Part shown: positions 3,896-64,000 of the stretch, piece after piece
How positions within the stretch are numbered: position 1 is the stretch's first letter
How the letters are laid out: every line of letters begins with the position of its first letter
NCBI GenBank assembly: GCA_964016885.1
Contig: OZ024743.1
Coordinates: forward strand, 285,386,001 to 285,450,000
Origin: Eledone cirrhosa
Taxonomy: Eukaryota
Direction: 5' to 3'
DNA length: 64,000 bases
Program-made: the position numbers and the translations under genes
The notes under the pieces: generated by a model
What the model saw: only the letters and a program-made list of their open reading frames with translations
What the model was told of the DNA's origin: nothing
Database searches by the model: none

Positions 3896-3944
<49 letters not shown>

Positions 3945-4790: not shown

Positions 4791-4806
4791 AACACTTTAA
4801 ATATAT

Positions 4807-5035: not shown

Positions 5036-5087
5036 ATATATATTATATTCGAACATCTTACAGACCTATGGAGCACATGATACTTAC

Positions 5088-6730: not shown

Positions 6731-6732
<2 letters not shown>

Positions 6733-6895
6733 AAAAATGTATTGATAAAAGAAAGTTCCTCCCTATTATTAATGAGTATTTCATTACTTGAATTGTTGAT
6801 CTGAGCAAAAAGAAAGCAACAAAAAATCACTCTTGTATATTCCTTCTTGGATTACTACAGTAAGACAGAACACAGAGGTGTATTTATGTGTTAAA

Positions 6896-7113: not shown

Positions 7114-7449
7114 CATTCATCATCATCGTGTAATGTCCATTTTTCGACACTAGCATGGGTTAGACAAGTTCTCCCAAGGCGATTGTTTTGCTGTTTCTGG
7201 TTTGGTTTCTATGTCTAGATGCCTTTCCTAATGCCAACTACATTTACAATGTGAACTGGACGCTTTTTGTTGTGACACCTACATGACCACTTTATAGTGT
7301 GAACTGGGCACTTTTTGTCATGACACCTACACAACCACTTTACAGTGTGGACTGGGTGCTTTTTGTTGTGACACCTACATGACCACATTAAAAGAATACA
7401 TTTGGAAACATCTCTTTCCAGTTGGTTTTAAAGAAATATTGGTACATAC

Positions 7450-7520
7450 CCACTCTTAATATATTGAAGTACTTCATCTGGATTTTCTACAGTCATTATT
7501 GGTAGAATTGGACCAAATAT
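7450..7520 (-). CDS. ALDH3: ALDH3-like exon 10 (IFGPILPIMTVENPDEVLQYIKS)
   Basis: EEIFGPILP motif completed across the junction; strong polypyrimidine acceptor, GTATGT donor. Confidence 0.96.
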
Positions 7521-8353
7521 CTATAAAAAAAAAGAAAAAAGGATTTTTTTATAATGACAATAAAATGGTGAGGAAATTGAATACCAATAGCATTTCCCAT
7601 TCAATATGGTCTTAGCCATTTGGGTCTTTTTAACACCTATCTAAAAATAGACTTTATAAGCGATAAGCATACATAAATGTTTGAATCTATATTGTAGTAG
7701 CTCAAACACCTAGGGGGTTGCAACTAAATCTCCCTAAACAAACACTCAGCCTTAAAAGAGAGGCCTTACATTTTAACTCATAAATTTTAGGAGTCCTTTC
7801 TACAATGTACATACGAGAATAGATATGCCATTTTGTTGATTAAATACTTCATTTAACCAGTTGTATCATTTCCATAATAAAACAAATAAAATATTAAAAC
7901 AATAACATCAATTTATCTCTCATGATATATACTAGCTACATGACCATTTGTTAATTTGAATAGTATGTTGTTTTTTGTGTGTGTTTGTTGGATTGGATAG
8001 GATTAAAAGTATCATTAAAACATTGTTGCAATGTCCTTCTGATGTATTGTTAATGTTCCATAAAATATGTAGTTGCAAAGGATCTATTGGTTGGAAAATA
8101 CAACAATCAAGAACTGTACTTCTCATATGTCTAACTGTTATATTTGGTAGTCTTATATCATATAATTAGTTAGCAGAAGCACTAACATAGTGTGATTCAT
8201 AATAGGAGTGTATATGAAGGCAAATACAATATGTTTAGGTACAATAAACATACATGAATGTATTATCTATGTATATCTATGAATATATGTTTATATCTTG
8301 GTGTGTTATTTTAGAGGTTTACATCAAGAAAGGGGTTACTGTTTAATACTGAC

Positions 8354-8480
8354 CTCTTCTTGCATTATAGGATCATTTGCTGTGATATCAGTCAGAATTG
8401 CTGGTGTTATCAGTCGACTTTCATCACAAATTTCACCGCCAAATGCAGGCTTTCTGTTTTCTAGATGTTTCTTCAAATGC
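8354..8480 (-). CDS. ALDH3: ALDH3-like exon 9 (HLKKHLENRKPAFGGEICDESRLITPAILTDITANDPIMQEE)
   Basis: AFGG...P-x-ILTD...MQEE; phase 2/0, AG/GTCAGT. Confidence 0.95.
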
Positions 8481-8571
8481 CTGAATTAGATGATAGAATA
8501 ATTGTTTTATATCCAAAAATATACAAGTAAAATATTTTTTTTTACTACTGATTTCATCTTGTGTAAATTTG

Positions 8572-8800
8572 ATTTGGCAGCCGTTGAAACTACAGGTGTC
8601 TTTGGTACCTGCACTGCCGATTTCCCCTGCAAAATTGGAAAGACAGCAGCCCACCTGAGGCCCATGAAGCAGGGTGGCTATTGCAGCAGGTGTTGCTGGC
8701 CATTCTCTGTGGCAATGCCTTCATCATTCTGTCTGGGGTATAGAGTCGGTTCCTCCTTCTCTCCTTTTCTTTTGTGGCTAAATTCTCTTTTTTCCTTTTC
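8572..8800 (+). mobile_element. CRE-like non-LTR retrotransposon 3' fragment (C-terminal to the restriction-like endonuclease)
   Basis: LAAVETTGVFG..F..KIG..W..Q...GNA pattern, homologous to 34540-34862. Confidence 0.55.
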
Positions 8801-8872
8801 TTCTTTCCATTTATTTTCTTTTTTGTTTCATTTAAATATTATTATTTTTTTATAATCATAAATATTATTGTA

Positions 8873-10048
8873 CTAACTGGCCCGTTAGGCTGGCGCCCGG
8901 CTACCATTGACGTGTTCTACGGCATCCATATATATATATATATATATATAGCTGACGTACCTAGCTTCGATTGGATAAACAGATGATAAGCCGTCTGTGT
9001 TGAAAATTACTGTTGAAAATATCTAGTACAGTATAGTATTACTGTTGAAAATATATAGTATAGTATAGTATTACTGTTGAAAATATATAGTACAGTACAG
9101 TATTACTGTTGAAAATATATAGAATAGTATACTATTACTGTTGAAAATATATAGTATAATATTACTGTTGAAAACATATAGTATTACTGTTGAAAATATA
9201 TGGTATAGTATTTTTGTTGAAAATATATAGTACAGTATTACTGTTGAAAATATATAGTACAGTATTACTGTTGAAAATATATAGTACAGTATTACTGTTG
9301 AAAATATATAGTACAGTTTACTGTTGAAAATATATGGTATAGTATTACTGTTGAAAATATATAGTACAGTATTACTGTTGAAAATATATGGTATAGTATT
9401 ACTGTTGAAAATATATAGTACAGTATTACTATTGAAAATATATAGTACAGTATTACTGTTGAAAATATATAGTACAGTATTACTGTTGAAAATATATAGT
9501 ACAGTATTACTGTTGAAAATATATAGTACAGTATTACTGTTGAAAATATATAGTACAATATTACTGTTGAAAATATATAGTATAATATTACTGTTGAAAA
9601 TATATAGTACAGTATTACTATTGAAAATATATAGTATAGTATTACTGTTGAAAATATATAGTATAGTATTACTGTTGAAAATATATAGTACAATATTACT
9701 GTTGAAAATATATAGTATAATATTACTGTTGAAAATATATAGTACAGTATTACTATTGAAAATATATAGTATAGTATTACTGTTGAAAATATATAGTATA
9801 GTATTACTGTTGAAAATATATAGTACAGTACTACTGTTGAAAATATATAGTATAGTATTACTGTTGAAAATATATAGTACAGTATTTCTGTTGAAAATAT
9901 ATAGTACAGTATTACTGTTGAAAATATATAGTATAGTATTACTGCTGAAAATATATAGTATAGTATTACTGTTGAAAATATATAGTATAATATTACTGTT
10001 GAAAATATATAGTATGGTATTACTGTTGAAAATATGTACACAAATATA

Positions 10049-15571: not shown

Positions 15572-15720
15572 ATAGGAACGAGTAGGACCCCGACGGCTGA
15601 GCTCAAGCCGTTTCGACGGCTAATTCTGGACTTAATAAACATTTAAAAAAAAATTTTCATTTAGTCCAGAATTAGCTGTCGAAACGGCTTGAGCTCAGCC
15701 GTCGGGGTCCTACTCGTTCC

Positions 15721-15723
<3 letters not shown>
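15572..15723. repeat. Fold-back inverted repeat (~60-bp arms) carrying the 3' half of a hammerhead (GAAA-cggct-loop-agccGTC)
   Basis: Arms 15572-15632 and 15663-15723 are near-perfect reverse complements; ends in (TA)n. Confidence 0.85.
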
Positions 15724-25385: not shown

Positions 25386-25962
25386 CCAAAGCATAAATGA
25401 ATTGAGAGAGAGACTGAGCATAAGAGGAATCAAATGCTGTGTGTAGGAGAGGCGGTTGCGTTGGTATGGACATGTGATGCGTATGAAGGATGACAGCTGC
25501 ATAAAAAGGTGCAGAGCACTAGAAGTCGATGGAAACCGCGGAGTGGGGAGACTCAAGAAGACCTGGGATGAGGTGATAAAAGCCGACCTTACCCAATTAC
25601 ACCTCTCAAAGGCGTCATGCAGTAATACAGAGTACCCGACCTCCCATGGGTACAAGCTGAAGCATATAGACAATATGTCCCCACACCCTCCCACTGCAAG
25701 GTGGTCGTGGAGGTGCCACGGCAAAAAAGCACCCAGCCCACACTGTAAAGTGGACGTGTAGGCGCCACGAAAAAGCACCCAGCACTCACTGTAAATGAGG
25801 TTGGTGTTAGGAAGGGCATCCAGCTGTAGAAATCAAGCCAAATCAGTTCCTGTATGAGCAAGGCATGGTCAGCCGACCAGACACTGCCCACAACAGGACA
25901 ACCCGTCTAACCCATGCTAGCGTGGAAGAACGGACGTAAAACGGTGATGATGATGATGATGA
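25386..25962 (+). mobile_element. RTE LINE 3' end inserted into a minus-strand family-A SINE
   Basis: RWYGHVMRMKDDSCIKRC..KKTWDEV; flanked by ATTAC on both sides, and SINE sequence resumes after the (GAT)n tail. Confidence 0.85.
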
Positions 25963-26815
25963 TTACTGGTACTTTATTTTATCGACCCCGTAAGGATGAA
26001 AAGCAAAGTTAACCTCAGCGGGATTTGAACTCAGAATGGCAAGGGCTGTAACTCTATGCGTCAAAGCATGGCGTCCGACCCTCTACCGATACTGCCAATC
26101 CACCCAATAATAATGATTATATTCCTTTATCCTTCATTCTTTCAACTGCGGCCATGCTGGGGCACCACTTTCAAGTAATTATATTGACCTTAATCTGGTA
26201 CTTTTTTTGGATTCGCAGTATCGGTAGAGGGTCTGATGCCATGCTTTGCAGTAAAGAGTTATGGCCCTTTATGGTCTGAGTTCAAATCTCGCCGAGGTTA
26301 ACTTTGCCTTTCATCCTTACGGGGTCGATAAAATAAAGTACCAGTAATACACTGGGATAATTGCTGGCCTTATACCAAAAGTAGAAACAATTATTATTTA
26401 TGAAATAAAGGGTGGTGGATTGGCAGGATTGGTAAAGTGTTGGACAAAATACTTTGTTGTATTTATTCCCACTCTTTACATTCTGAGTTCAAATTCCACT
26501 GAGGTCAACTTTGTCTTTCATCCTTCCAGGGTTGCTAAAATAAAGTACCAGTCAAATATAATTGACTTTGCTCTCTCCCCAAATTGCTGGCCATGTGCCT
26601 AAATTATAAACCATTATTTATCAAATGACTAAGTCCACCTTTGACATAAAGAGACATAACTCATTACCTAAATAGCACAAGGTATTTTTATTCAATGTAC
26701 TGATGTTCCCCTCCTTTTCTTTTGTTATTTTGTGTTCAGAAGTTCTGTGGTGGATGGTGGATCCATCTATTAGCAGTTACTCATACATCCAAGTATTCTT
26801 TTAATATCTATAAGC

Positions 26816-27315
26816 ATCCTTATGGGGTCGATAAAATAAAGTACCAGTAATACACTGGGTAATTGCTGGCCTTGTGCCAAAAAGTAGAAACAATTATGTA
26901 TATTATTATATCATTATTTCACAGGGCGGTGGATTGGCAATATCGGTAGAGTCGGACACCATGCTTTGAAGCATAGAGTTACGTCCCTTTATGATCTGAG
27001 TTCAAATCCCGCCGAGGTTAACTTTGCCTTTCATCCTTACGGGGTCGATAAAATAAAGTACCAGTAATGTGCTGGGTAATTGCTGGCCTTGTGCCTAAAA
27101 TAGAAACAATTATTTCATAGGGCGGTGGATTGGCAGTATTGGTAGAGGGTCGGACGCCATGCTTTGCAGCAAAGAGTTACGTCCCTTTATGGTCTGAGTT
27201 CAAATCCCGCCGAGGTTAACTTTGCCTTTCATCCTTATGGGGTCGATAAAATAAAGCACCAGTAATACACTGGGATAATTGCTGGCCTTGTGCCAAATGT
27301 AGAAACAATTATTTC
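26816..27315 (+). repeat. Head-to-tail tandem of family-A SINE units (~197 bp, about 2.5 units)
   Basis: GGGCGGTGGATTGGCA...TAGAAACAATTATTTCA repeats directly at ~26922 and ~27120, with a partial unit before. Confidence 0.85.
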
Positions 27316-42815: not shown

Positions 42816-44590
42816 ATCATTTTTCTAACTCTTCTTCCTCACCCAACCCACTTTCTCTAACTTGTCTCCCCACTTCATCTCATGTATGTACCCTTGCAGT
42901 ATACAGTTACCTCTACCTCTACCATCACCACCAACACCATCATCACCATAAACATAACCAACACCAACACCAACACCACAACCACACCACCACTGCTACT
43001 ATCACCACCACATCCATTACCACCAACACCACCACATAATCACCCTTACCACTGCCACCCCCATTACCAGCACCATCACCTCCATTACCAACACCACCAC
43101 CACCACTTAACCACCACCACCGACACCACCATTACCTGTATTACCACCACCTCCACAAAACCACCATCACCACCACCACCCTACATATTTTGCAACATAC
43201 ATGTCATTTCTAACAAATCTCCATTGTACTCTTGATACTATCTCCTTCATCTTCAAGTTCATACTCAACTCCAAAATATTCTTCAATTTCCATCCAATAC
43301 AGTTCCAACTTACAATCTCTTTCTCTCTTCTCACACCCTCTTTCAATATATATTACCATTTCTAACATTGTCTTTGTCTCTTTCCGATGAATGTCCTCTG
43401 TGAAATGCTTAAATGTCCAAGATGAGTTGTTTATAAATTACCATTTTGTTGACAATTAACCTCATCCTTAGAGTATAGAGATTTGATTATCAATCATCAT
43501 CAGGTGTCTTAACCCTTTAGCATTTAAACTGTCCATATCCAGCCAGAATTCTCTCACCTCTTTCTGTTTAAACCAGCCATAATCAGCCACTCATACTGAT
43601 GTTAAGGTATTTTTCTCAAAATAAATAATATCAAAAAGGGTTAATATGATTTACATTAACATATTAGCTGTTTATTCATAATTAAATTCATGAGATTATT
43701 TCTCATTGCAAATATCAAACTGAGTTATGACATGTTATTATATTGCACATTAGTAGAATAACATATCCTGCTAGCTCCAAGTGATAAAATGGTTTGCAGT
43801 GATAGACTTTCACAGTTAACATAACAGATATAATTTAACCCATTATTCTATATTTACTATTATATTTTCATGGTAAAGGCTTTACCTCATATAATATCGA
43901 ATCTATGAGATTTTGATATTATTTATTTTGAGAACAATACCTTAACATCAGAATGAACAGCTGGTTATGGCCAGTTTGAACAGAAAAAGGTGAGAGAGTT
44001 CTAACCAGATATGGCTGGCTTAAATACTAAAGGGTTAAGGAGATGAAATAACAAGTTCTTTGAAGATGGTTTGAGTCTTTTCAGATGCTTGTTTCTCTTT
44101 GCTATCTCAGATTAGTGCTTAAAATGTAATAATACCATTTAATCTATGATAGCGATTGACAATATTTCAAACCTCATTTGTTTACCGAGTGGGGTGGATC
44201 TCGTCAAATCAGACCAAGGAAACAATGTTTCCATTGCTGATACTATATACTTGTCACAACTCCTGGCATAGAGAGCAACATAACATAAAGTGTCTTGCTC
44301 ATGGATATAATGCATTGCCCAACCTTATGAATGTGAATCCAACTCTCTAACCACAAGCCATGTACCTTCACTTTTAATCTATACATTAAGCATATTGGCC
44401 TTGTTTAACCCTTTAGCATTTAAACTGGTTGTATCTGGCCAGAATTCTCCCACCTCTTTCTGTTCAAACTGGTTGTAACTGACTGCTCATACTGATCTTA
44501 AGGTATTATTCTCAAAATAAATAAAATCAAAACCTCATAGATTTGATATTATGTGAGGTAAAGCGTTTACCGTGAAAATATAATAGTAAA

Positions 44591-44830
44591 TATAGAGTAA
44601 TGTAAATATAGAGTAATTTAAATATAGAGTAATGTAAATATAGAGTAATGTAAATATAGAGTAATGTAAATATAGAGTAATGTAAATATAGAGTAATGTA
44701 AATATAGAGTAATGTAAATATAGAGTAATGTAAATATAGAGTAATGTAAATATAGAGTAATGTAAATATAGAGTAATGTAAATATAGAGTAATGTAAATA
44801 TAGAGTAATGTAAATATAGAGTAATGTAAA
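44591..44830. repeat. 16-bp tandem (TATAGAGTAATGTAAA) x~15 amplified inside a piggyBac-like MITE
   Basis: The unit occurs once in other MITE copies. Confidence 0.9.
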
Positions 44831-49693: not shown

Positions 49694-50114
49694 TAGCACA
49701 ACATCATGGACTAATGTGTCATTTCTTAACTTTTAAAGACACATTGAAACTTATAAACTAGTGAAATATGATATGAAAATAAGCGAAAAATTTAGTGAAA
49801 TAACTTTAACCTTTTAGTATTTAAATCAGCCATATCCGGCCAGAATTCTCTCACCTCTTTCTGTTTAAACCAGCTGTAACCGGCCACTCATACTGATGTT
49901 AAGGTATTGTTCTCAAAATAAATAATACCAAAATCTCATAGATTTGATATTATGTGAGATAATTATGTAAGATAAAGCCTTTACCATGAAGATATAATAG
50001 TAAATATAGAATAATGTAAATGCTAAAGAGTTAACACACTTTAAAACTTTTACACATTTATGAGAAAAATTGAAACCTATGAAAGTATCAGAGAGAGTTT
50101 TATCATAATTGAGT

Positions 50115-51420
50115 AAGTATAAAAGTAGATTCAATGAAATGCAGTTTCAATTTGTGCCAAGCTTTTGACAGAACACCACATTCCTTAGTTTGGTTAGCTT
50201 TAAAGGCCTTTGACAGATTAACTTGTTCGATTATCTGGTGATCCTTATGGAAATTAAGTGTAGAAGAATGGTTTGTGAGAGCAGTGCAAGCCATGTACAG
50301 AGGAGCTTTCAGTAAAGTGGGAGTAGGAACTGAGTTTAGTGTGGAATTTAAGGTACATTAGGGTTGAGTTCTCAGCTGACTGCTGTTCATCATACATAAC
50401 AGGCCATACATAACAGAGAAGTTTAAGACTGGCTGTTCATGAGAGCTTCTCTATGTGGATGATCTGGTCCTTATAGCTGAATCCATAAAAGAACTAAAGA
50501 ATAAGTTCCAACTATGGAAACAGAATTTATAGTCAAAAGGGCTGAGAATAAACTTAGAAAAAACTAAAATGCTGGTAAGTAGGAAAGATGGCAGGACCCT
50601 GATCCCATCAGGAAAATGGCCCTGCTGGATATGAAGAAAAGGAGTAGGCAGACAATCTATACAATGTACACAATGCAAATCTTGGGTACACAAGAGGTGT
50701 TGTGGGATAACAGACAGACTAACTAGAAAGGAAGTCTTGGTGTGTACTAGATGCACAGGGTAATCGATAGGAAGTGCATCAGTTATATAAATCTTTTCCA
50801 ATCACAAGAAGGATCCATAGAATTAGTTTATAGCTTCTACTACTAATTATCAGTGGAAGAGGGTGCTCTGTGAGCATTATGGTTAGAATAAAGATAGGTT
50901 GGAAAAGGTTTAGAGAGCTACTCCCACTCTTGACAACAAAAGGTTTCTCCCTACATACAAAAGGACGGCTGTATACACCTGTGTGCAAAGTTTGATGCTG
51001 CAAGGTAATGAAACACAGGCAGTAACTGCAGAAGATATGCATAGGCTGGAGAGAAATGAAGCAACCATGCTTCATTGCATGTGCAATGTAAATATGAGAG
51101 AAAGGCAGAGCTTGCATGATCAGAGGGAGAAACTGGGTTGAAGAAGAATCAGAAGTGGTGTGCAAGAGAGAAGACTGTGTTGTTACAGATATGTGATGCA
51201 CATGAATGATGATCGTTGGGTGAAGAAGGGCCAGGAAATCCCATAGAAGGAAGCAGTAGTAGAGGTAGGCCAAGAAAAGATCTAGGCAGAGGTGGTGAGA
51301 ACTGAGCTACGAAGGAACATGACAAGTGGAGAGATGCTGTGCTGAAAGGAACCTGGTTAACCTATGCAAAAGTGAAAAAAAATGGACTTAAAAATGACGA
51401 TGAGGATGATAATGACAATG
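50115..51420 (+). mobile_element. Older, heavily decayed RTE LINE copy
   Basis: KAFDR, LLYVDDL, WVHKRC and C-terminal motifs, with many stops. Confidence 0.8.
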
Positions 51421-51904
51421 ACAACTCTTGCCTTAAAAAAACCAATGTTTACATACTTTATTTACCCTGCTAACAAGGGTTGGATAGGTCATTACAGACA
51501 AAGTAATAAGTCAAGTGGAGCTACTGACCTCTGAGATAGGCTGGGGGCCTGCATTTTTCTTAAATATGTTCCACACTCTGCTGAGTGCATTTTATCATGG
51601 CACCAGCACTTGGGAGGTTGCTGGTCATACACAAGGAGGTTGCTGGTCATTTATAACCAACCCCAAAAAAGACTTCGTGAGCCCCCTTTCTTTTTTCAAG
51701 TAAAAAGAAATTCAAACACTCATATATGAAAAAACAACCTGTGACAACCCCCCCCCCCTTATTTGAAGAACTATTGTAACGCGAACTGGCGCGAAATTTA
51801 TTATAATTATTGACCAACCACTCAAGTTACTTCTCGAAAAACCTGGCATTTCGAGCCACTTTTTCCATATAAAAGAAGTAACATTCAGAGACCAACCAGA
51901 TGTG

Positions 51905-52040
51905 AGAAAAACCACAGACCCTCCATCTCAACTCACCTTTTGAAAAGCAGAAGAACTGCGAAACCGGTAAAGGAACCAAATAAATATATATATTTTTTTA
52001 AAAAATAAGACTCCAGTTGCATTTTCGATTTCATCTCTTT

Positions 52041-52091
<51 letters not shown>

Positions 52092-52282
52092 AGAAAATGA
52101 GTTTTTTTTATAAAAGAAAAAACAAAAGAAAAAATAGATGTTCTACATGGGTGAAAGTATAACAAAAAGAAATTGAAAATACAACTGGGGTCTTTTAGGA
52201 ATATCTATTTATGTACTTTAGTGGTTTCACAGTTCTTATGCTTTTCAAAAGTAATATTGAGATGCAGGATTTGTGTTTCTGT
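51905..52282. repeat. Diverged inverted repeat around a (TA)n tract, probably a DNA-transposon remnant
   Basis: CATCTCAA..TTTTGAAAAGCAGAAGAACTGCGAAACC..GACTCCAGTTGCATTTTCGATTTC mirrored at 52160-52280. Confidence 0.6.
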
Positions 52283-52680
52283 TGTGTTTTGTATATATAT
52301 ATATATCATCATTATCATCATCATTATCATCATCGTTTAATGTCCATTTTTCCATGCTAGCATGGGTTAGATGTGTTGTCTTACTGTGAGACAAGTCAGA
52401 TCAGTTGACCATGTCTTGCTCATATAGAACGTTTGTGGGTTAATTTCTGTGGCATGATGCCCTTCCTAATGTCAACGACATTTACAGTGCAGACTAGGTG
52501 CTTTTTATCGTGGCACCAAAATGACCACTTTACAGTGTGAACTGGGAGTTTTTTGTTGGGGCAAGAAATATAGTCCTTCATCAGGAGATAGAATGAGAAA
52601 TAAAAAGTAAAATAGGAAGATAGAGAGTGAGAAGAAAGAAAAGAAAAATTTTTGAGAAAAATCATATACCTATTGGGGAA

Positions 52681-52719
<39 letters not shown>

Positions 52720-52800
52720 TTGGGTTCAATCGGGAGTATCTGCGGTTAGTAAGGTACTCAATACATTAGTTTAGTAGAGTGTAAACATCAAGTTTAATAT

Positions 52801-52908
52801 AGAAAGGACTTCTACAAGACTAGAACTGTTTCATTCAAAAGAAATTGCCAGGAAAGCCTGATAATTTCTTTTGAATGAAACAGTTCTAGTCCTGTAGAAG
52901 CCATTTCT
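52801..52908. repeat. Fold-back pair of degenerate hammerhead-like motifs; single copy at 21552-21619 (-)
   Basis: Arms 52801-52852 and 52857-52908. The three copies give a consensus CTGATGA tttc-tttt-gaat GAAA cagttcta GTC. Confidence 0.65.
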
Positions 52909-52919
52909 CTCTCTCTCTC

Positions 52920-52975
<56 letters not shown>

Positions 52976-53154
52976 GAGAGAGAGAGAGATTTTACCAGTT
53001 TAAAACTAATGAGACCATTATTCAGCTGAGTATTTGATACTTGGGATAGAAAATTGTAAATATATTAGAGCTCAACTGTCAGGCCCTAAATCTCTTATAT
53101 AAAGTGACCATCCTGGAGCCACAACAATAAGCGCCCATCCCATACTGTATATAC

Positions 53155-54180
53155 ATATCATCATCATCATCACCGTTTTACGTCCGTTCTTCCACGCTAG
53201 CATGGATTGTCCTGTTGTGGGCAGTGTCCGGTCGGCTGACCTTGACTTGCTCATACTGGAACTGATTCTGGCTTGAATTCTACAGCTGGATGCCCTTCCT
53301 AACACCAACCTCATTTACAGTGAGTGCTGGGTACCTTTTTTCTGTGGTGTCTGCACGTCCACTTTACACAGTGTGGGATGGGTGCTTTTTTGCCGTGGTA
53401 CCTCCACGACCACTTTGCAGTGTATGTGTGTGTGTGTGTGTGGGGGGGGGGATATTGTCTATATGCTTCAGCTTCGGCTTGTACCCATGGGTACTTCTGT
53501 ATTACTGCATGACGCCAGAGATCATGGTCATGTGTCATCACCTTTGAGAGGTGCAATTGGGTAAGATCGACTTTTATCACCTCATCCAAGGTCTTCTTGG
53601 GTCTCCCCACTCCACGGCTTCCATCGACTTTTAGTGCTCTGTACCTTTTTATGCAGCTGTCATCCTTCATGCGCATCACATGTCCATACCAATGCAACCT
53701 CCTCTCCTGCACACAGCATTTGATTCTTCTTATGCTCAGTCTCTCTCAATTTGTTTATGCTTTGCCGTTTGCGTATATTACTATTACATATCCATCGGAG
53801 CATGCAGGCTTCGTTTCTTTCTAATCTATGCAAGTCTTCCACAGACAGCACCCAGCTCTCACTACCATGTAACATTGCTGTTTGTATACACGCATCATAC
53901 AGTTTGCCTTTCATTTTGAGGGAAAAGCCTTTTGCAGCTAGCAGTGGGAGTAGCTCCCTGAACTTCTTCCATCCCGTTCTTACCCTAGTTATTGTACTTT
54001 CTGAACACCCACCTCCGTTGTTAATTCGGTCACCTAGGTAGCAGAAGCTCTCTACTGTTTCTACAGAGCCCTCCCAGAGTTTGGTGGTGCTTGTTTCCTG
54101 TGGCTGTTTGCTGCTTGCTGTCCCGGCACAGCTGCTATATGTAAAGCCTACATTCTAAGTTAAGCTTCTAGAGATCCCAC
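53155..54180 (-). mobile_element. RTE LINE 3' kb, same subfamily as 47400-49693, inverted relative to it
   Basis: Reverse complement of ~48665-49690. Confidence 0.9.
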
Positions 54181-54859
54181 TATATATATATATATATATA
54201 TATCATCATCATCATCATCATCAACGTTTAACGTCCGTGTTCCACGCTTGCATGGGTTTGGACGGGGGTAGTCCCACTTGAGGCAAGAGTGATTGTCTTG
54301 CTCGCATAGGACTGTCTGGCAGGTTTTCTACAGTTGGATGCCCTTCCTAACACCAACCACATTTACAGTGTGGGTCTGGGAGGTTTTTACCGTGTTGCCT
54401 ACACGGCCACATTACAGCGTGGACTGTGTGTTTTTTTGTCGTGACACCTACACGATCTCATTTGTTTCGGCCTGGATGGCGCGGCACCAACATAACTTTA
54501 CATAGAACGGGGTGGTGTGGATGGGGTGGGGGTGGTGGTGGTGGTGGTGGGACGGGGTGTATTTTGTTAGAGATGCCTACTGGCTGGAGTAGGTTTTACT
54601 ATATATTTAGGTAAGGCGGGTCTTCTCTGTTACTGAGTACCGCCAAAGGTCTCGGTCCAGTGACATTGTCTTGGAGAGGTGTAAGTGTGTGATGTCGGAG
54701 TTTATCAGCTCGTTCCAGGTTTTTCTAGGTCTGCCTATTCCGTGACTACCGTCTATCTTTATTGCCCTGCACTTTGTTATACAGCTATCGACTTTCATGC
54801 GCATCACGTGTCCATACCAACGTAGCCTTCTCTCGAGTAAACAACATCTGATCCCTCTT

Positions 54860-54895
<36 letters not shown>

Positions 54896-55511
54896 AAGCC
54901 AGAAACAATTCTGTATGAGCAATACGCAGTTATCTGATCTGACTTGTCTCACAATGGGACAAATTGTCTAACCTATGCTACTGTCAAAAGATGGACGTTA
55001 AACCCTGTTGCTGCTGCTGCTGATGATATACATATATGTGTGTATACATGGGTGTGTAGTTAAAAACATTTAAAAAAGTAAATATAAGATATTTAGTTTC
55101 ATGTTTTACTATTTCTTCCATTCTTCTGCTTTTATAATGGTAAAAGTGGGAGCATAGTAGAACTGACAAGTGTTTCATATACTACCAAATACTCATTCTC
55201 TCTTATTTACATATACACCAGGTCTGAACACAAAAGAACCAAACTCCCACAATCACTGACTCCATCTCTTCCGCTCTCCCCTTCTCTTACTATTGTGAGC
55301 AAATGGAAAAAGTTATTACAAACAATTGAAATGATCAGGATGGTAGTGGTGGTGGTGGTGGTGATGATGATGGTGTTAGAGATGGTGATGGTGATGGTGG
55401 TGATGATGGGTGATGGTGGTGGTGGTGATGGTGTTGGTGATGGCAAGGATTTACATTGATGATGACAATAATGATGATAACCATGAAACTGAATTATAAC
55501 TGTTCACTTAC

Positions 55512-55529
55512 TTTGCTGGCTTCTGTCAT
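55512..55529 (-). CDS. ALDH3: ALDH3-like exon 1, coding part (MTEASK); probable start exon, 5'UTR may extend to an acceptor at 55613
   Basis: ATG ACA GAA GCC AGC AAA followed by a GTAAGT donor. Phase 0 joins exon 2 to give MTEASKIVKELRQSF, comparable to the ALDH3 N-terminus (MSKISEAVKRARAAF). The 18-kb intron makes the assignment less certain. Confidence 0.6.
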
Positions 55530-56051
55530 GTCTAAGAGAAACTATTTTCTAAATGTGGATGGTGATACTATCTGCTTTGTTTGTCACGTCTGAATCTAAC
55601 TTCTGCTGACAGTCTAGGTATATAAGGTAGGCATGTATCTCTATAAGTATTAGTATTTATTACTATTTTTATCTTTATCTATATACACGTGTCTATGTCT
55701 ATATGTGCATGTATGTACATTAATATATGTCTGTACATATGTGTAGTCATATATATGTACCTATAAATATATGTGTGCCTGCCTATGCTTTTGTCTGTAT
55801 AATCTATGTAGTAATATTTATATGTGTGAGTAGCAAAAAAATAAAAAATAAAAATAACAATGTTATCAATTGATTGATTAGCAGCATCCTCACCAACACC
55901 AATAAAAATGACAACAACAACAACATCAGACATAATCTGACCTATATTTTAGATTAAAATGAATGATTAAGGATTATCTTGAAATTAAAATCACATATGC
56001 GACATTATTTATGGTTGTCTTTATATTTTTGTGCATGTGTTTATATATATA

Positions 56052-56803
56052 TCATCATCATCATCATCACCGTTTTACGTCCGTTCTTCCACGCTAGCAT
56101 GGGTTAGACGGGTTGTCCTGTTGTGTGCAGTGTCTGGTCGGCTGACCATGCCTTGCTCATACAGGAACTGATCTGGCTTGATTTCTACAGCTGGATGCCC
56201 TTCCTAACACCAACCTCATTTACAGTGAGTGCTGGGTGCTTTTTCGTGGCGCCTACACGTCCACTTTACAGTGTGGGCTGGGTGCTTTTTTGCCGTGGCA
56301 CCTCCACGACCACCTTGCGGTGGGGGGTGTGGGGGCATATTGTTTATATGCTTCAGCATGTACCCATGGGAGGTCGGGTACCCTGTATTACTGCGTGACG
56401 CCAGAAGTCACGGTCGTGTGTCATTGTCTTTGAGAGGTGTAATTGGGTAAGGTCGGCTTTTATCACCTCATCCCAGGTCATCTTGGGTCTCCCCACTCCG
56501 CGGTTTCCATCAACTTCTAGTGCTCTGCACCTTTTTATGCAGCTGTCATCCTTCATATGCATCACATGTCCATACCAGCGCAACCGCCTCTCCTGCACAC
56601 AGCATTTGATTCCTCTTATGCTCAGTCTCTCTCTCAATTCATTTATGCTTTGTCGTTCACGTATATTACTGTTACACATCCATCGGAGCATGCAGGCTTC
56701 GTTTCTCTCTAATCTACGTAAGTCTTCCACCTTCAGCGCCCAGGTCTCACTACCATGCAACATCGCTGTTCGGATACACGCATCATACAGTCTGCCTTTC
56801 ATT
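56052..56803 (-). mobile_element. RTE LINE 3' end
   Basis: MKGRLYDACIRTAMLHGSETW...RRLRWYGHV...WRHAV plus 3'UTR and (GAT)n tail. Confidence 0.9.
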
Positions 56804-56890
56804 CTGTATATATATACATACATACAACAGCATACATATACTTGCATATAGGCATATATACATACAACTGCATACATATATTCACATATA

Positions 56891-56944
<54 letters not shown>

Positions 56945-57091
56945 TATATATATAGGAACTGAGGAACTGGAATCATATGATTCCAGTTCCCCAGTGAATT
57001 AACAACCCAACCAGGAACTGGGCATATCAGAGTATTGACAAAGTTATACACCTCAACAACATGTGTACTCGTCTCTACCACACTAATTCGG

Positions 57092-57146
57092 ACTGCCTGA
57101 AGAGGTCACAGCCAAAGATGGCTGTCACCGAAATATATATAGCAGT
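57092..57146 (+). ncRNA. Minimal type-I hammerhead ribozyme motif followed by AATAAA
   Basis: actgc CTGAAGA ggtcacagcc-aaagat-ggctgtcacc GAAA tatata TA gcagt aataaa. Confidence 0.85.
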
Positions 57147-57210
57147 AATAAACAAAGCCAAATTTTAAACATTTGACTTATTTATTTCATTTTATTTTAT
57201 ATATATATAT

Positions 57211-57347
57211 ATATTTATTAAAATAACAGAATAAAGTTTAAGCAAAGAATCGCTGCTTTCACCCTTAACGGGATCTTCAGAAGATCCTGTTAAGGGTGAA
57301 AGCAGCGATTCTTTGCTTAAACTTTAATCTGTTATTTTAATAAATAT
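57211..57347. repeat. Near-perfect palindrome centred inside the hammerhead CUGAAGA box
   Basis: Centre TCTTC-A-GAAGA; minus arm reads CTGAAGA t-ccc-gttaa-ggg-t GAAA gcagcga TTC. Confidence 0.8.
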
Positions 57348-57464
57348 TTGCTCTACAGTTCTTATATATTTGATATATATTTATCCTTATCGAGCCCTCT
57401 TTGGATTTTAGTTTTCAAATTTATTATTATTACTATATATATATACATATATATATTTATATAC

Positions 57465-57523
<59 letters not shown>

Positions 57524-57635
57524 TATATATATATATATATATATGTAAATTTGAGTATATGTTGGTTAGTTACCAACATTTCAGTATGCAGGTTAGAGCA
57601 CTAGGTGGGTCTATTTACTCCGGAGTAATTTAAAT

Positions 57636-58066
57636 ACAAGTAGTGTAAGTCAACAGGTTAAAATTAACTTCATTTATTCATATTCGCTGTTATATATATT
57701 TCGTTGATAACCATTATTCAACAGCTATGACCTCATCGGACAGCTAGGACTTGAATAGAAAAAACAGGAAAACATAATAATGGAACAAAGTTTACCTCTT
57801 TTATTTCAATCTTTTGATATGCCCAGTCCCGAAGTATGGTGCCAGTTTTTGAGAAACCAACTCCATACTTTGGAACTGGGCATAACAAAAGATCGAAATA
57901 ACAGACACAAACTTTGTTCCATTATTATGCTTTTCTGTTTTTTCTGTTCAAGTTCTAGCTGTCTGATGAGGTCATAGTTGTTGAATAATGGTTATCACCG
58001 AAATATATATAATGGCGAATATGAATATACAAAGTTAATTTGAACCCGTTGATTTACACTTCTTGT
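57636..58066. repeat. Inverted repeat (~200-bp arms) with a hammerhead in each arm (+ 57958-58016; - 57686-57744)
   Basis: gctgt CTGATGA ggtcatagttgttgaataatggttatcacc GAAA tatata TA atggc; the mirror arm has CCGATGA. Confidence 0.85.
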
Positions 58067-58159
58067 TATATATATATATGAATCATCATCCTCATCGTTT
58101 AACGTCCACTCTCCATGCTAACATGGGTTTGACGGTATATATATATATATATATATATA

Positions 58160-60803
58160 CCGTCTCTAAGCACCAACAGAGGCGAACAAGACGGTACCAA
58201 CACCGAACCTAGCGGCGCCCCGACCAACAACACACCTGACGCAAAACACCTCGTTACAGACTTGACAGGATCCCTCTCCCGAGAGGAATTAGACCTCCTC
58301 AGCCTGGGTCCCAAGTTCATATTGAAACAGCGACTGGACGAAAAATTATGGCTCGACATAGAAACGAATTTCTGTCGGGCCGCCTACTAACTAAAATGGA
58401 TATCGACTCTCGGCAACAACACCACGGAATCTAACAAACCCAGATTCCCGATATACCAACTGGATCGCCCACTCTGTCCACCGCCTGCCAACCGCGAGCT
58501 TGAAGTAAAACTCTCGAGGCTAAAACATTCCGTATTTAACATCTTACGGAAACAGAAGAAGATAGCCCCAAACCTCTCCAGGACACGCCCTGAAGAACTT
58601 GCGGAATAGGGAACTTATATACTTACCATCCGACAAAGGTAAAGAGTTTTGTGTCATCTCTCAAGCCACATACAACAACCTAGCCTTTGAACACCTAAGC
58701 GACAACGAACTATATACAGAGATCGCGGACATGACTGCAGCCCAGATAAAAAAACAGGCCAACTCCATCTAGTTCGACATCTGTAGGAGAAGACAACTCC
58801 CAAATAAAGTTAAGCTCAACTACACCACTAGAAATAGCAGACTGCTCACTTTCTACCATTCATCAAGACCCACAAGAATAGTACTAAGACACAAATAAGA
58901 CCCATCGTATCTAGCATAGAAGGACCCCTATACAAAATCTCCTGGCTCCTCTCCCAGGTCCTCAAGCCTCTACTCCCCACCTTTCCCAGGCATGTCAGTA
59001 GCTCCGACGAGGTCATACGTAGACTACACCAACTCCAGCCAGAACAACTTAAACTATATAGATACACCTTTAGCCTCGACATTGTCTCCCTCTACACTAC
59101 AGTCCCCGCTCATCCAGCTGTCGATTTATTGATGGACTGCGTGGTCGCAGATGACATCCAGTGCTACAGCCTCCATCCGACGGGCATACACCAGCTTTTG
59201 TCCTTCAAAGCGGACAACACGTACTTCACCCTCCACCACCACACATACAGACAGACAACAGGATTACCCATGGGATCCAGACTATCGGGCCTGCTGGCCA
59301 TCACCTATATGAACCAGCTAGAATGCCGAGCCCTCAACACCTGCCATTCCCATACCTTCTTCACCTGATACGTAGATGACATACTCATCCTTACATCATC
59401 CCGTGAAGAGGCAGAGAAAATATACACCACATTCTCCAGCATGGACGCCAGTATAAAGTTCAGCATGGAGCACCCCGATGACCGCGGATCCCTATCCCTA
59501 CTGGACTTCCAACTCAGGGTAACAGAGGAAGGCAACATCCACACCTGCTTATATAAAAAAGCCGCCAGCACGGACCTGTTTGTACATTTCAGATTGGCCC
59601 TTCCAGCCGGTGCTAAGTTCGGATACATAAGGGACGAACGAACACGTATCCGGAACAAATGCACCGACACAAGAGACCGAGACACACACACCACACATTT
59701 CCTGGAAGTACTCAAACTGAACGGATACCCGACGTCCACCACGAACCGTGCCAGAAAGAACAGAGGACACCACACCCAAGGCACTAACACCTGCTTCCTG
59801 AAGCTCCCACACTTCAGTGACGAAACAACAACAGCCATCCGCAGAGCTATCAGACGAGAGGGACTAGATTTCCAACTAGCCCACTCAGAACCTTCTCTAC
59901 GCGGACAGCTAACCAAAAGACACTCCACCAGACATGACAGCTACTGCAGGCTAGCCAACTGCCCCATCAACGACACAGACCTATGCCACCAGGCTTACGT
60001 CATATACAGATTAGAGTGCGACAAATGCAGCAATTTCTACGTAGGTAGCACCACCAGACCAGTTCACATAAGAATAAAAGAACACCTCAATACTAACGCT
60101 TCCTCATTTAAGAAACACCTAGTGAAATGCAAAAACACCGACAAAAACATAACAGTTAGGATAGAAACTAAGGAAAGAAACCTCGGCAATCTTAGAATTA
60201 AGGAAGCACTAATTATAGACAAAACACAACCACCAATCAATAATAGACTAGAACTCAACACCCAATTTATAACATGATAGAGCACCTAGCCCCACACTTA
60301 CACCCCCCTCTCACAACACGCACACGCACACACACACGCTTACACCTCCACTTATTCTCTCTCACACACACACACACACACATACACCAGTTTTAACATG
60401 ATAGAGCATCTAGCTCCCACATTTACGTATAGACATATCTTCTCACACTCTCACACACACACACAGGCACACTTACGCCTTCACGTATTCTCCCACACAT
60501 TTAAACATACACGTACAAAACCCCTTTTAAAGGGAGACTACTATTTATCCACCTAACCTTCACTCTTTGACATTAGAGATAGAATGGAATCTCTATACCA
60601 TTTCCTGTCAGCATGACTTGGCAAGCTAATTAGAACACAGGATAAACCACTTTACTTCCCTCCGAAGAAGAGATATTATCTCGAAAATTAAGGATATTTA
60701 AATAAATTTAAGGTAAAAGACTAATTGTCAACAATATCTTTTGCATTTGCATTTATATCCTATATCCATACCTGCATTGTCTTGGCCTTACAACTACAAA
60801 CGT
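58160..60803 (+). mobile_element. Penelope-like retroelement (RT plus C-terminal GIY-YIG endonuclease), decayed, flanked by (TA)n
   Basis: RPIVS, FSLDIVSLYT, GLPMGSRLS, YVDDIL, IKFSMEH..LLDF, then VIYRLECDKCSNFYVGSTTR..RIKEH..KEALII..IN; several stops/frameshifts; hammerhead-like motif in the 3' end. Confidence 0.92.
60657..60694 (+). ncRNA. Hammerhead-like motif in the Penelope 3' pLTR region (U4>C variant)
   Basis: cct CCGAAGA a-gagat-att-atctc GAAA at TA agg ... AATAAA. Confidence 0.6.
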
Positions 60804-60916
60804 TTATATATATATACATATAACCAAAGATTAATATGGTTCATTGATTACTCAATGAATACAGTTTTACAATAGATTAAAAGCACTCAACAGTAGGTTT
60901 TCCTGGAGTTTTTAAT

Positions 60917-61208
60917 ATTATTCAAAATAATAACAAATGAAGATATTCACATAATCAAAATATATGCTTTATTATATATATTTCGAAGGTACTGTGTTGT
61001 TTGTTCAGTACGTCCTCGTCAGATAAAATATATGATTTGATATATGACATACCTCTACGGTCTTGATAGTTCAATTTCTGTATTGACATTCCTGTATTTT
61101 ATCTGACGAGGACGTACTGAAAAAACAACACAGTACCTTCGAAATATATATAATAAAGCATATATTTTGATTATGTGAATATCTTCATTTGTTAATATTT
61201 TGAATAAT
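60917..61208. repeat. Inverted repeat (~114-bp arms) with an intact hammerhead in each arm (+ 61098-61157)
   Basis: tttat CTGACGA ggacgtactg-aaaaaacaaca-cagtaccttc GAAA tatata TA ataaa; mirror copy at 60968-61027. Confidence 0.87.
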
Positions 61209-61242
61209 TTATATACATATATATATATATGAGTACATGAAG

Positions 61243-61852
61243 TTGTATATCTGGCGACATATAGTATGTTTATAAATAAACATTTTGAAAGCCTTCCGCT
61301 ATGAATTTGAAAACTTGCAGCATATCACCATCTAGTGTGTTCCAACAGGAGCTAAGTACAGGCAACCAGTGATGATGACGTCATCATTTCTGACTTTTCT
61401 TTTCTCGTTACCAAACTGGTACTGTCGACCGCTTACTGCTGGAACATATTATAAACCAAAAGATATAGTTTAGAAGCCTATTTACATTGGCTGATCAGCC
61501 AAATTTACATATAGAGTTACGGTTGGCTCAGCTGGAGATAAAATAAGGGCCAAAAGTCAGGTTTCTAAACTATATGTTTTGGCTTATAATATGTTCCAAC
61601 AGTAAGCTGTCGGCAGTACCAGTTTGATAACGACCAAACTCAGAAATGATGACATCATCATCACTGGTTGCCCATACTTAGCTGCTGTTGGCACACACTA
61701 GATGATCCTATGCTGTCAATTTTCAAATTCATAGCGGAAGGCTTTCAAAATGTTTATTTATAAACATAACGTATATCGCCAGATATACAAAGCTATATTA
61801 GAGTTAATGCCCTTATTTTATCTCCGGCTGAGCCAGCTGTAACTCTATATGT
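61243..61852. repeat. Compound diverged inverted repeat (61243-61477 vs 61562-61790; 61507-61551 vs 61809-61852), no hammerhead seen
   Basis: Direct reverse-complement comparison; bounded by (TA)n. Confidence 0.8.
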
Positions 61853-62229
61853 TAACTCTAAGAGTTAATGCCCTTATATATATATATATATATATATATG
61901 CCTATATATGCGCATGGCTTAGTGGTTAGAGTGGTGGGCTTACAATTGTGAGGTTGTGAGTTTGATTCTCAGACCAGGCTTCTTGAGCAAGATACTTTAT
62001 TTTACATTGCTCCAGTTTACTCAGCTGTAGAAATGAGCCACTGGTGCCAAACTGTATCAGCCTTTACCTTTCCCTTGGACAACATGGGTGGCGTGGAGAC
62101 AGGCAACTAGTATGTATAGGTGACTGCTGGTCTTCCACAAACAACCTTACCTGGACTTGTGCCTTGGAGGGGAACTTTCAAGGTGTAAATCCCATGGTCA
62201 TTCATTCGTGAACGAAGGAAGTCATTACC

Positions 62230-62273
<44 letters not shown>

Positions 62274-62281
<8 letters not shown>

Positions 62282-62506
62282 AATTTCTTTAAGTCGTTTG
62301 GAAGCCTCGACAATGCAGATGGGTAAATCTCCGGGTAACAAGATCCGGTGGTGGAGAGAGAGATGTAAGTGGGTGTACGTTAAGATGCGTTGAGATGCGT
62401 GGTACACCCACTTACATCTCTCTCTCCACCACCGGATCTTGTTACCCGGAGATTTACCCATCTGCATTGTCGAGGCTTCCAAACGCCTTAAAGAAATTTA
62501 CCTTAT
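62274..62506. repeat. Near-perfect inverted repeat (~105-bp arms), no hammerhead core seen
   Basis: Arms 62274-62378 and 62402-62506; starts at a (TA)n tract. Confidence 0.88.
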
Positions 62507-62555
62507 TATTCCACAATGCTTCAAGCAAACTTCAATACTCTCATATATATATATA

Positions 62556-62843
62556 ATATGGAAAACGAATAATCAGTGATGCATCGGAACACAATTTATT
62601 GTCGTATTACAATTGTTTCTCCAGCGAACAGCTCGAGGTGCAATCTATTTGTGGATCGAACCTGACTCTAGATTCGCAAGTTCCTCAGATTCGGAAGTCA
62701 CTAGACATATCTGAGGAAGTTGTGAATCTAGAGTCAGGTTCGATCCACAAATAGATCGCACCTCGAGCTGTTCGCCGGAGAAACAATTGTAATACGACAA
62801 TAAAGTGTGTTCTGATGCATCACTGATTCTTCGTTTTCCATAT
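62556..62843. repeat. Inverted repeat (~135-bp arms) with a long-stem-II hammerhead in each arm (+ 62707-62795)
   Basis: CTGAGGA [extended stem II] GAAA caattg TA atac gac AATAAA; mirror arm at 62604-62690. Confidence 0.8.
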
Positions 62844-63329
62844 CATTATACTCTGCTCCGAAGGTGCATAGAGTGCTCAACTGGCATACTGCCTATGGAC
62901 ACATCCAAGCTACCATACTTCAAATATATATATCATCATCATCATCATCGTTTAATGTCTATTTTCCATGCTAGCATGGGTTTAGACGGGAATTGTCCCA
63001 CTTGAGGCAAGATTGGTCGGGTGACCGTGTCTCACTCGTATAGGACTGTCTGGCAGGTTTTCTATGGCTGGATGCCCTTCCTAACACCAACCACATTTAC
63101 AGTATGGACTGGGAGGTTTTTACCGTGTTACCTACACGGCCACATTACAGCGTGGACTGTGTTTTTTTTTTGTTGTGACACCTACATGACCTCATTTATT
63201 TTGGACTGGATGTTGTGGTACCAACATAACTTTACAGAGAAAGAGTGATGTTGGTGGGAGTGGGAGGGTGGAGTAGGGGTAGTGGGATGGGGTGTATATA
63301 TATATATATCAGTGTGTTAGTGGGAATCG

Positions 63330-63960
63330 AGGTGTTGTTGGGGAAAAGTGTGTGTGAGAAATGATACTTAGCACCACTGATGCTCAAAAGAAAGAGGCCT
63401 GGAAATGTTACTATGAGAGGCTGATGAATATAGAAAATGAACGAGAGGAGGAGAAACTCTTCCCAACTTACCCAACAGAAAGACCAGCTATTGAAATTGA
63501 CAGTTATAGGGTCAATTATAGAAGCAATCAAGAAAATGAAGAAAGGAAAAGGTGTTGGCCTGTCAGAGATAGTTACTGAGATGCTAAAAGCATTGGGAGA
63601 AGTAGGAACCAAACTAGTAACCTGCATAGTCAATCAGGTAATACAAGATGGAGTCATACCCATTGACTGGCACAGCAGTACAACAGTAAATTGCTACAGA
63701 GGAAAAGGAGCAACTATAGAAGAATAAAACTAATGAACCAAGTTATGAAAGTGGCGGAAAAAGTTATAGCATAGCTAATTAGGGAAAGAGTCAAATTATA
63801 TGAGATACAGTTGAGTTTCATGCCTGGAAAAAGTACTGCAGATGCCCTCTTCTTAGTGAGGCAACTACAAGAGAAGCTACTAGCCAAGAATAAGCCACTA
63901 TATTTAGCTTTTGTTGATCTAGAAAAGGCCTTTAACAGAGTACCTCATTCTGTTATTTCA
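63330..63960 (+). mobile_element. Decayed RTE LINE RT fragment
   Basis: MKKGK..EMLKA..IP.DW..VNCYRGKG..FVDLEKAF. Confidence 0.8.
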
Positions 63961-64000
63961 CACACACACATGTTTGCCAGCAACAAACGGCTTCTTTCTT

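Follow-up and report, generated by a model that had tools for sequence, protein, structure and literature searches.

The 64,000-nucleotide (nt) stretch analysed here, which we call the window, comes from the genome of Eledone cirrhosa (contig OZ024743.1 of assembly GCA_964016885.1, positions 285,386,001 to 285,450,000 of the forward strand). Between positions 56950 and 62850 it holds an array of modules that carry hammerhead ribozymes and belong to Penelope-like element (PLE) ends. A preliminary description had read this array as at least six hammerhead-bearing modules, mostly in head-to-head pairs strung on (TA)n tracts, and had suggested that they might form a class of their own without an open reading frame (ORF). 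Self-comparison of the window confirms the inverted pairs at 57211-57347 (96% identity), 57636-58066 (213-nt arms, 87%), 60917-61208 (119-nt arms, 97%) and 62548-62850 (138-nt arms, 94%), in which the hammerheads face outward and one arm runs on as a tail; the (TA)n tracts separating the modules are confirmed as well. The full modules extend further (57211-57432, 57546-58066, 60820-61225 and 62548-62922). Self-comparison also adds inverted repeats at 62274-62506 and 61243-61790, and two inverted modules had been overlooked: 62274-62542, without a hammerhead inside, and 61243-61875. The families represented by window modules are named F1, F2, F3, F5, F6 and F7, L-numbers denote fetched loci, and the coordinates of all features are collected in Table 1.

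A strict scan for type I hammerheads finds four complete motifs in the array (57092+, 57958+, 61097+ and 61028-), and a bulge-tolerant scan of 56950-62850 finds 4, compared with 0 in each of 200 dinucleotide shuffles. The remaining hammerheads are decayed (57744-, 60657 and 62703) or cut by a junction (both arms of 57211, and 62697-). The count of six hammerhead modules therefore stands only in part, since 57211 is incomplete and 60657 and 62556 are decayed, the latter in stem I and with a stem II of about 60 nt. At 57636 the right-arm hammerhead is intact and the left-arm core reads CCGAUGA; 60657, listed as a separate module, is the non-inverted 3' end of the 58160-60803 element itself, with a core decayed to CCGAAGA. 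The AATAAA described as following the second strand of stem I (stem I') does so directly at 57092, 60917 and 62556; the right arm of 57636 lacks it. Cores are canonical in F1, F3, F5 and F6. Stem I differs between families (ACUGC/GCAGU in F1, then GCUGU/ACAGC, UUUAU/AUAAA and CGUAU/AUACG, paired in 145/145, 88/95, 126/130 and 122/130 cells, respectively), and 29 of 30 F1 copies match the hammerhead pattern. Judged from these alignments, the stem covariation that was looked for lies between families, and copies within a family only decay. A comparison of window positions 50000-64000 and 10 loci with Rfam returned sub-threshold microRNA (miRNA)-type hairpin hits only, and no hammerhead.

F2 departs from this pattern in that its core is CAGAAGA, with AGAAGA following C in 30/30 loci. 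Because of this core, because the minus-strand CUGAAGA at 57211 is a product of the fold-back junction, and because neither arm retains the 5' strand of stem I, the 57211 module holds no complete hammerhead; the F2 stems were read by eye only, as a hammerhead regular expression matched 0/30 copies. The young F2 family, which has intact ORFs, nevertheless has a hammerhead-like fold (57279-57330; L274-L289) in which U4 is changed to A and stem III is full. The family is successful although its ribozyme is probably impaired, and relatives of F7 carry a similarly altered core. The hammerheads may be passengers that are copied twice; since one genomic strand carries only one hammerhead of a pair in sense, the pair cannot form a dimer in cis.

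Searches of the same genome returned 1,142 to 3,612 first-look candidates per module, which are not copy numbers, and 30 loci were examined for each. The copies have a common 3' end and variable 5' cut points, and longer copies lead upstream into ORFs: L139 (GIY-YIG) and L292 for F1; L106/L155 for F2; L172 (GIY-YIG), reached after one extension search, for F3; L013, L153 and L156 for F5; L152 (GIY-YIG) and L467 for F6; and L204, L211 and L214 for F7. In F2, 7 of the 16 loci selected for their long frames have an open frame of 713 amino acids (aa). Copies with an ORF between two pseudo-long terminal repeats (pseudo-LTRs, or pLTRs) are found in F5 (L257, L262 and L264), in F2 (L275, L276 and L282) and in a sister subfamily of F1 with 90% arm identity (L292, with an 894-aa frame, and L294); some of these full arrangements have an extra inverted 5' arm. 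Tandem or inverted pLTR structures with a tail occur in L257, L262, L275, L276 and L294. In L301 and L302, arms that include an ORF form head-to-head pairs on the kilobase scale, which repeats the module layout at larger size. On these sequence comparisons, each module is the 5'-truncated, inverted 3' end (pLTR) of a distinct autonomous Penelope-like family. In themselves the modules are ordinary retroelement debris. The modules are not miniature inverted-repeat transposable elements (MITEs) or fold-back DNA transposons, as their arms are unequal by the tail, their centres vary and they are continuous with retroelement ORFs; nor are they non-LTR retrozymes, as they are head-to-head or single and their variable lengths are continuous with ORF-bearing copies. 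The families are new, the kind is already known and the module architecture has been published. The preliminary description had assigned the hammerheads to PLE pLTRs from several families on TA microsatellites, and the longer, ORF-bearing copies bear this out: the five listed modules outside the adjacent element, and also 62274, match longer copies with GIY-YIG or reverse transcriptase (RT) domains. All of these are truncated PLE ends, an outcome that the preliminary description had itself named as speaking against a separate class. The 3' untranslated region (UTR) of F1 (L136-L150 upstream of F1; L300) contains internal repeats of pLTR-like blocks (ATAACACACACACATTTT..., GACTGAGGAATG...ACTGACCAATG), which suggests earlier partial tandems that were absorbed into the UTR.

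The proteins of these families carry RWR/RWK and DKT motifs (F1, F2 and F5, with a decayed form in F6), together with a CxCx5C linker, no CCHH, and CxxC and CxH around a conserved E and N (decayed in F3 and F6 copies). The diagnostics of the Hydra clade of PLEs are an RWK-like motif, DKT in place of DKG, CxCx5C, the absence of CCHH, and CxxC/CxH (PMC8557442, section 11). By this comparison of motifs, with reference sequences compared by eye, F1, F2, F3, F5 and F6 carry the features of the Hydra clade. A single ORF encodes RT together with a GIY-YIG domain at the C-terminus in the 713-aa F2 and 894-aa F1-sister proteins; F3 and F6 are seen as fragments only, the N-terminus of the F3 protein lying outside the sequence seen. 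Profile A1, which represents the Hydra-type ORFs, aligns over RT and GIY-YIG to a Pfam-verified protein (96.6%, E 6.6e-10), and among the 18 members of the alignment one each matches RVT_1 and GIY-YIG in Pfam; a sequence search against solved structures with Hydra-type ORFs returned nothing. The spacing from pLTR to pLTR is about 3.2 kb (L275), 4.1 kb (L294) and 4.3 kb (L257), which misses a Hydra size of 'generally under 3 kb' that is a tendency in PMC8557442 and not a diagnostic. A Neptune-like label for the partner elements, taken from the cysteine linker, was dropped for the Hydra diagnostics. Asparagine-rich inserts lie between the RT thumb and the endonuclease linker in L073, L153 and L156; such inserts have been described for rotifer PLEs (PMC3846280). 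Many 'metagenome' contigs and proteins labelled hypothetical or bacterial (L303-L380; for example P0067) are Hydra-type animal retrotransposons.

The 58160-60803 element gives Pfam hits to RVT_1 and GIY-YIG and has motifs of the GxKF, DKG and CCHH type as well as several stops and frameshifts, and the best BLASTP match between its protein and the Hydra-type ORFs has an E value of 0.028. As read from its sequence, the element is dead and of another clade. Because of the stops and frameshifts, and because its protein shows hardly any relationship to the Hydra-type ORFs, it cannot be the mobiliser of the modules that it had been taken for.

If the modules moved as units, as a non-autonomous class of ribozyme hairpins mobilised in trans, they should recur with fixed structure. 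From 210 loci we set aside 7 duplicates, 7 in which no end could be scored and 20 whose arms exceeded 850 nt; of the 176 copies scored, 76 contain an inversion. These 76 inversions have 75 distinct arm-length pairs, so the hairpins do not spread as fixed units. The lengths run continuously up to ORF-bearing arms, including those of L301 and L302, the 62274 module has the same layout without a hammerhead, and a module transcript has one arm in sense only and no second hairpin of the kind described below. It is true that the samples consist mainly of short ORF-less copies (median main-arm length 110-280 nt), non-autonomous PLE derivatives, the retrozymes, do exist (PMC7229834; bioRxiv 2026.07.22.740005), and one F2 junction recurs, being shared by the window and L115, with three more unfetched hits that break at the same place. 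This recurrent break falls in a short palindrome, TTCAGAA, which is likely a junction hot spot. Taken together, we regard a unit-moving class as very improbable.

The two arms of an inversion differ in a regular way. The main arm is tailed and the inverted arm tail-less in 29 of the 76 inversions, and the reverse holds in 25; none is tailed twice, and paired arms have opposite tail states in 54 of 56 clean calls. In F1 and F3, for which the queries had no tail, the tail-state table is 6/0/0/12 (Fisher p 5e-5), the window's own copies being among the rows. We found no published description of this one-tailed rule for inverted pairs. Eight inverted pieces consist of tail sequence only, which is missing from the main arm. 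This bears on the possibility that the modules are PLE ends whose inversion comes from self-priming or fold-back, with either an antisense template or the freshly made cDNA being copied, a route suggested for rotifer PLEs; self-priming on an antisense template has been proposed (PMC3846280), the junctions often lie in short palindromes (57279 and 56976), and the small fold-back at 56958-56995 holds no element end. Fold-back on cDNA cannot add a tail that is absent from the first arm, and therefore did not make the eight tail-only pieces. In addition, many pairs have unequal arms and no shared centre, and both ends lie at fixed distances from two hairpins. Self-priming is, in our judgement, a rather unlikely source of the inversions as a whole.

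These hairpins are the second regularity at the element ends. Full-length copies show that the 5' UTR begins with the tail, which lies 40-50 nt upstream of the ATG. After each of the two ends come RCUC, a variable stem-loop, a 2-nt bulge (UW/UC) and GAGY-RCU, between the hammerhead and the ATG. When ends in F1, F2 and F5 are mapped onto natural copies of the junction, 122 of 123 lie 0-8 nt 5' of hairpin copy 1 or 2, tail-less ends before hairpin 1 and tailed ends before hairpin 2; the F2 and F5 queries each held one end, and in the F1 reference copy 1 carries mutations and was located from its 5' half. For hairpin 2 the most frequent end position is -3 (15/20 in F1, 24/29 in F2 and 10/10 in F5). 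The hairpins are 90-99 nt apart in these three families, the tail equals this spacing, and 115 of the 123 ends abut TA. As an out-of-sample check, an F6 junction has by eye a second hairpin with a CA bulge 3 nt past the tail end, a check that rests on a single junction, which 15 of 16 fetched regions did not contain.

The motif is also present outside this genome. Among 78 Hydra-type metagenome loci it occurs in 24 of 49 full upstream windows, twice in 10 of them, compared with 7/245 ORF windows, 6/49 antisense windows and 11/2,450 shuffles. Across the 78 loci the fixed letters occur in 77 distinct sense instances and 3 antisense instances. The first inner pair is paired in 77/77 instances (C-G 52, U-A 25), the second in 53/77 and the third in 50/73, compared with means of 60, 34 and 29 in shuffles, and 0 of 10,000 shuffles, which ignore relatedness, reach the observed values. 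TAT lies within 9 nt upstream of 55 of the 77 instances and of 133 of 643 background positions. Taken one by one, the hairpin folds do not reach significance (z -0.2 to -1.9); what supports the hairpin is its conservation. In the consensus file of PMC8557442 the hairpin can be seen by eye twice before the ATG of the sea-cucumber element Hydra-1_Ajap; Hydra-2_Ajap and the coral element Hydra-2_Amil each show it once, close to the 3' end. The passages of PMC8557442 covered here do not mention it, Rfam gives no match, and a literature search outside most subscription journals and Repbase notes found no description; RNA folds in the figures or supplement of PMC11167929 may bear on its novelty.

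The twin motif might act as DNA, either as a site for the endonuclease or a host factor in the pLTR or as a cruciform, and not as an RNA docking site. The tail of Drosophila Penelope is needed for endonuclease recognition of plasmid DNA (cited in PMC11167929), and the fixed letters GCTC/GAGC form a DNA palindrome. Against a role as DNA, the inner stems covary, differ in length and carry an asymmetric bulge, G-U pairs are tolerated on the sense strand (6 vs 2 A-C), the hairpin of L275 has a C(UUCG)G loop, and new ends arise at distant TA tracts whose target has no motif. C(UUCG)G loops are stable. We consider action as DNA unlikely.

We therefore consider it probable that the modules are 5'-truncated, head-to-head PLE ends in (TA)n tracts, and that, as predicted from their ends, both cut strands prime RT at two starts set by the hairpins. 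A more specific reading, which we hold tentatively and at slightly less than even chances, is that the duplicated RNA docking signal (RCUC-stem-loop-bulge-GAGY-RCU) serves as a ruler, in that a dimeric telomerase-related RT/endonuclease bound at both copies of a single transcript would prime both (TA)n strands about 3 nt 5' of each. A read-through transcript would carry both hairpins. The element protein, probably as a dimer, would bind the two hairpins, and GIY-YIG would nick the self-complementary (TA)n target on both strands. The 3' ends thus exposed could then each anneal to UAU just 5' of a hairpin and be extended towards the hammerhead; both cDNAs would stop early and would be joined head-to-head at microhomologies or short palindromes. 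In an anole PLE, both target strands are cut and extended, and there are two internal start sites whose spacing equals the tail (PMC11167929).

Several observations weigh against this model. No inverted piece is present in 100 of the 176 scored copies, and among the 76 inversions 2 are tail-less twice, breaking the rule, and 20 are unclear. The samples are best hits to window queries, of which those for F2, F5, F6 and F7 included one end. Of the metagenome loci, 25 of the 49 full upstream windows are without the strict motif, the pairing shuffles take no account of descent, and the G-U count is a weak sign for action as RNA over DNA. A Pfam scan of the Hydra-type ORFs gave no direct hit, and the fold-back at 56958-56995 fits self-priming better. 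PMC11167929 saw no start-site difference between strands and calls the start non-homologous to the cut DNA, and its findings alone yield neither the one-tailed rule nor the TA microhomology.

The palindromes might also be fold-back artefacts of assembly. Contigs and RAD reads of public sequencing runs cover the families, and no independent record among them bridges the window's own centres, including 57851. The preliminary description had argued from arm mismatches that the palindromes are real; indeed, the arms differ by 1-13% and the tail is on one arm only, the ends obey a biological rule, and raw Illumina reads of two other DNA runs contain opposite-strand joints in these families. An assembly artefact is hardly credible.

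How PLE tails and inverted pLTRs arise is posed as an open question in the literature (PMC8557442, PMC11167929), and the genomic ends supply base-level start-site maps, the one-tailed rule and a short conserved cis-element. If true, the ruler reading explains the PLE tail, the head-to-head pLTRs and the single tailed end together, and describes a portable signal with two sites for target-primed insertion on both strands. The intact young 709-aa F2 partner protein and the cis-element make the question of tails and inversions directly testable. PLE RTs are the closest relatives of telomerase RT, and an RNA element that fixes the start of copying therefore bears on the evolution of template choice.

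Outside the array, 60 evenly spaced 10-kb regions (L381-L440) contain 39 hammerhead hits, with none in 40 regions and 4-5 in 3, and a scan of 30 shuffled regions gave 0 hits. The load across the 3.0-Gb assembly is estimated from large contigs only at about 195,000 motifs (bootstrap 110,000-290,000). Although dense, the window array is an ordinary accumulation at a TA hot spot and is not unique. The motifs in the 60 regions stem from many more families than the window's seven, and our literature search found no paper on so large a hammerhead load in this genome. For annotation, about 10^5 hammerhead motifs and many perfect hairpins will mimic miRNA precursors and MITEs here. The 61243-61875 repeat family (L441-L460) has 839 first-look candidates, with partial head-to-tail tandems and inversions and no ORF traced; as a possible non-autonomous PLE-like unit it is a stronger candidate than the listed modules. 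Self-comparison finds other inverted repeats in the window (15572-15723, 52801-52908, 1005-1059, 25962-27266 and 43508-44602), and there is one additional hammerhead hit near position 14387. The flanks of the cluster (53300-56850 and 62930-64000) contain (CAT)n-headed repeats and fragments of long interspersed nuclear elements (LINEs), which we take from their motifs to be of the RTE type. Homologous sequence from Argonauta hians is among the matches.

Table 1. Features of the hammerhead array and its (TA)n tracts in the window
Feature	Position	Strand	Remarks
(TA)n target tract	56894-56953	.	
Further (TA)n tracts	57198, 57434-57544, 58067, 58136, 60805, 61217, 61875, 62233, 62543, 62924		
F1, 5'-truncated tail-less 3' end of Hydra-type PLE family	56956-57197	+	L139 GIY-YIG upstream
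Small local fold-back within F1	56958-56995		
F1 minimal type I hammerhead	57092-57146	+	Intact core CUGAAGA, palindromic UAUAUA; fold z -3.1
F2 inverted tail-less arm	57211-57278	-	Hammerhead cut at junction
F2 tailed arm	57279-57432	+	Young Hydra-type family with intact ORFs; core CAGAAGA
F2 tail	57348-57432	+	
F2 bulged hairpin copy 1	57350-57398	+	
F3 inverted tailed arm	57546-57848	-	Tail 57546-57635; hairpin 1 part-deleted near 57626
F3 inverted-arm hammerhead	57686-57744	-	Core CCGAUGA
F3 tail-less arm	57854-58066	+	L172 GIY-YIG upstream
F3 hammerhead	57958-58016	+	Intact core
Dead canonical-clade PLE	58160-60803	+	GxKF, DKG, CCHH-type motifs; RVT_1 and GIY-YIG; stops, frameshifts
Hammerhead of 58160-60803 element	60657-60694	+	Decayed
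F5 inverted tailed arm	60820-61035	-	Tail 60820-60916
F5 hairpin 1	60882-60909	-	
F5 hammerhead	60967-61028	-	Intact
F5 tail-less arm	61090-61225	+	
F5 hammerhead	61097-61158	+	Intact
Unclassified TA-flanked repeat	61243-61875	.	Unit about 350 nt, inverted and partial-tandem; no hammerhead found
F7 inverted module without hammerhead	62274-62542	.	3' end of 58160-element relative; right arm tail 36 nt
F6 inverted tail-less arm	62548-62690	-	Long-stem-II hammerhead, stem I cut at junction
F6 tailed arm	62703-62922	+	L152 GIY-YIG
F6 hammerhead	62703-62800	+	Decayed stem I
F6 tail	62847-62922	+	Hairpin 1 at 62850-62877

The closest known system is the Hydra clade of endonuclease-containing PLEs (Craig et al. 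2021, PMC8557442), which includes Hydra-1_Obim of Octopus bimaculoides, an element with a preference for (TA)n and a hammerhead (PMC8557442 supplement). The families described here share with this clade a C-terminal GIY-YIG without CCHH, the RWK-like motif, DKT and the CxCx5C linker, as well as the pLTR hammerhead, (TA)n targets, an inverted 5'-truncated copy and a tail at one end (PMC8557442). They add five further families, with units of 3.2-4.3 kb compared with 'generally under 3 kb', tails of 76-99 nt compared with 30-40, the F2 core CAGAAGA and an F6 stem II of about 60 nt (PMC8557442). Inverted 5'-truncated PLE copies with a tail at one end had already been described (PMC8557442, PMC3846280).

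The hammerheads themselves resemble the minimal type I hammerheads that metazoan PLEs carry (Cervera and de la Pena 2014, PMC4209133) in their short stem I, an extra base after A9 and a palindromic helix III. Such hammerheads have low activity and act only as dimers, and dual motifs on opposite strands, 100-700 bp apart and derived from truncated PLEs, are known (PMC4209133). The load of about 195,000 estimated here compares with 2,000-9,000 in the genomes of PMC4209133, and with up to 120,000 canonical hammerheads in axolotl (PMC7229834). With non-LTR retrozymes the modules have in common that they are short, ORF-less and PLE-derived and carry a type I hammerhead; in contrast, retrozymes form tandems of head-to-tail units and give rise to circular RNA, whereas the modules here lie head-to-head, vary in length and grade into copies with an ORF (PMC7229834; bioRxiv 2026.07.22.740005).

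As to mechanism, the nearest parallel is Poseidon PAc, from Anolis carolinensis (Frangieh et al. 2024, PMC11167929), with which our families share two internal start sites (predicted here) 3' of the hammerhead at a spacing equal to the tail, AT-rich targets, a predicted dimer and, as proposed here, the cutting and extension of both strands. The Poseidon PAc hammerhead is dispensable in vitro (PMC11167929). Poseidon PAc belongs to another clade, and its starts lie inside the ORF in an AC-rich stem-loop for which the passages covered name no repeated motif; here, in contrast, the predicted sites are in the 5' UTR, each just before one copy of a repeated hairpin on its 5' side, and the two arms of a pair differ in the site that they use (PMC11167929).

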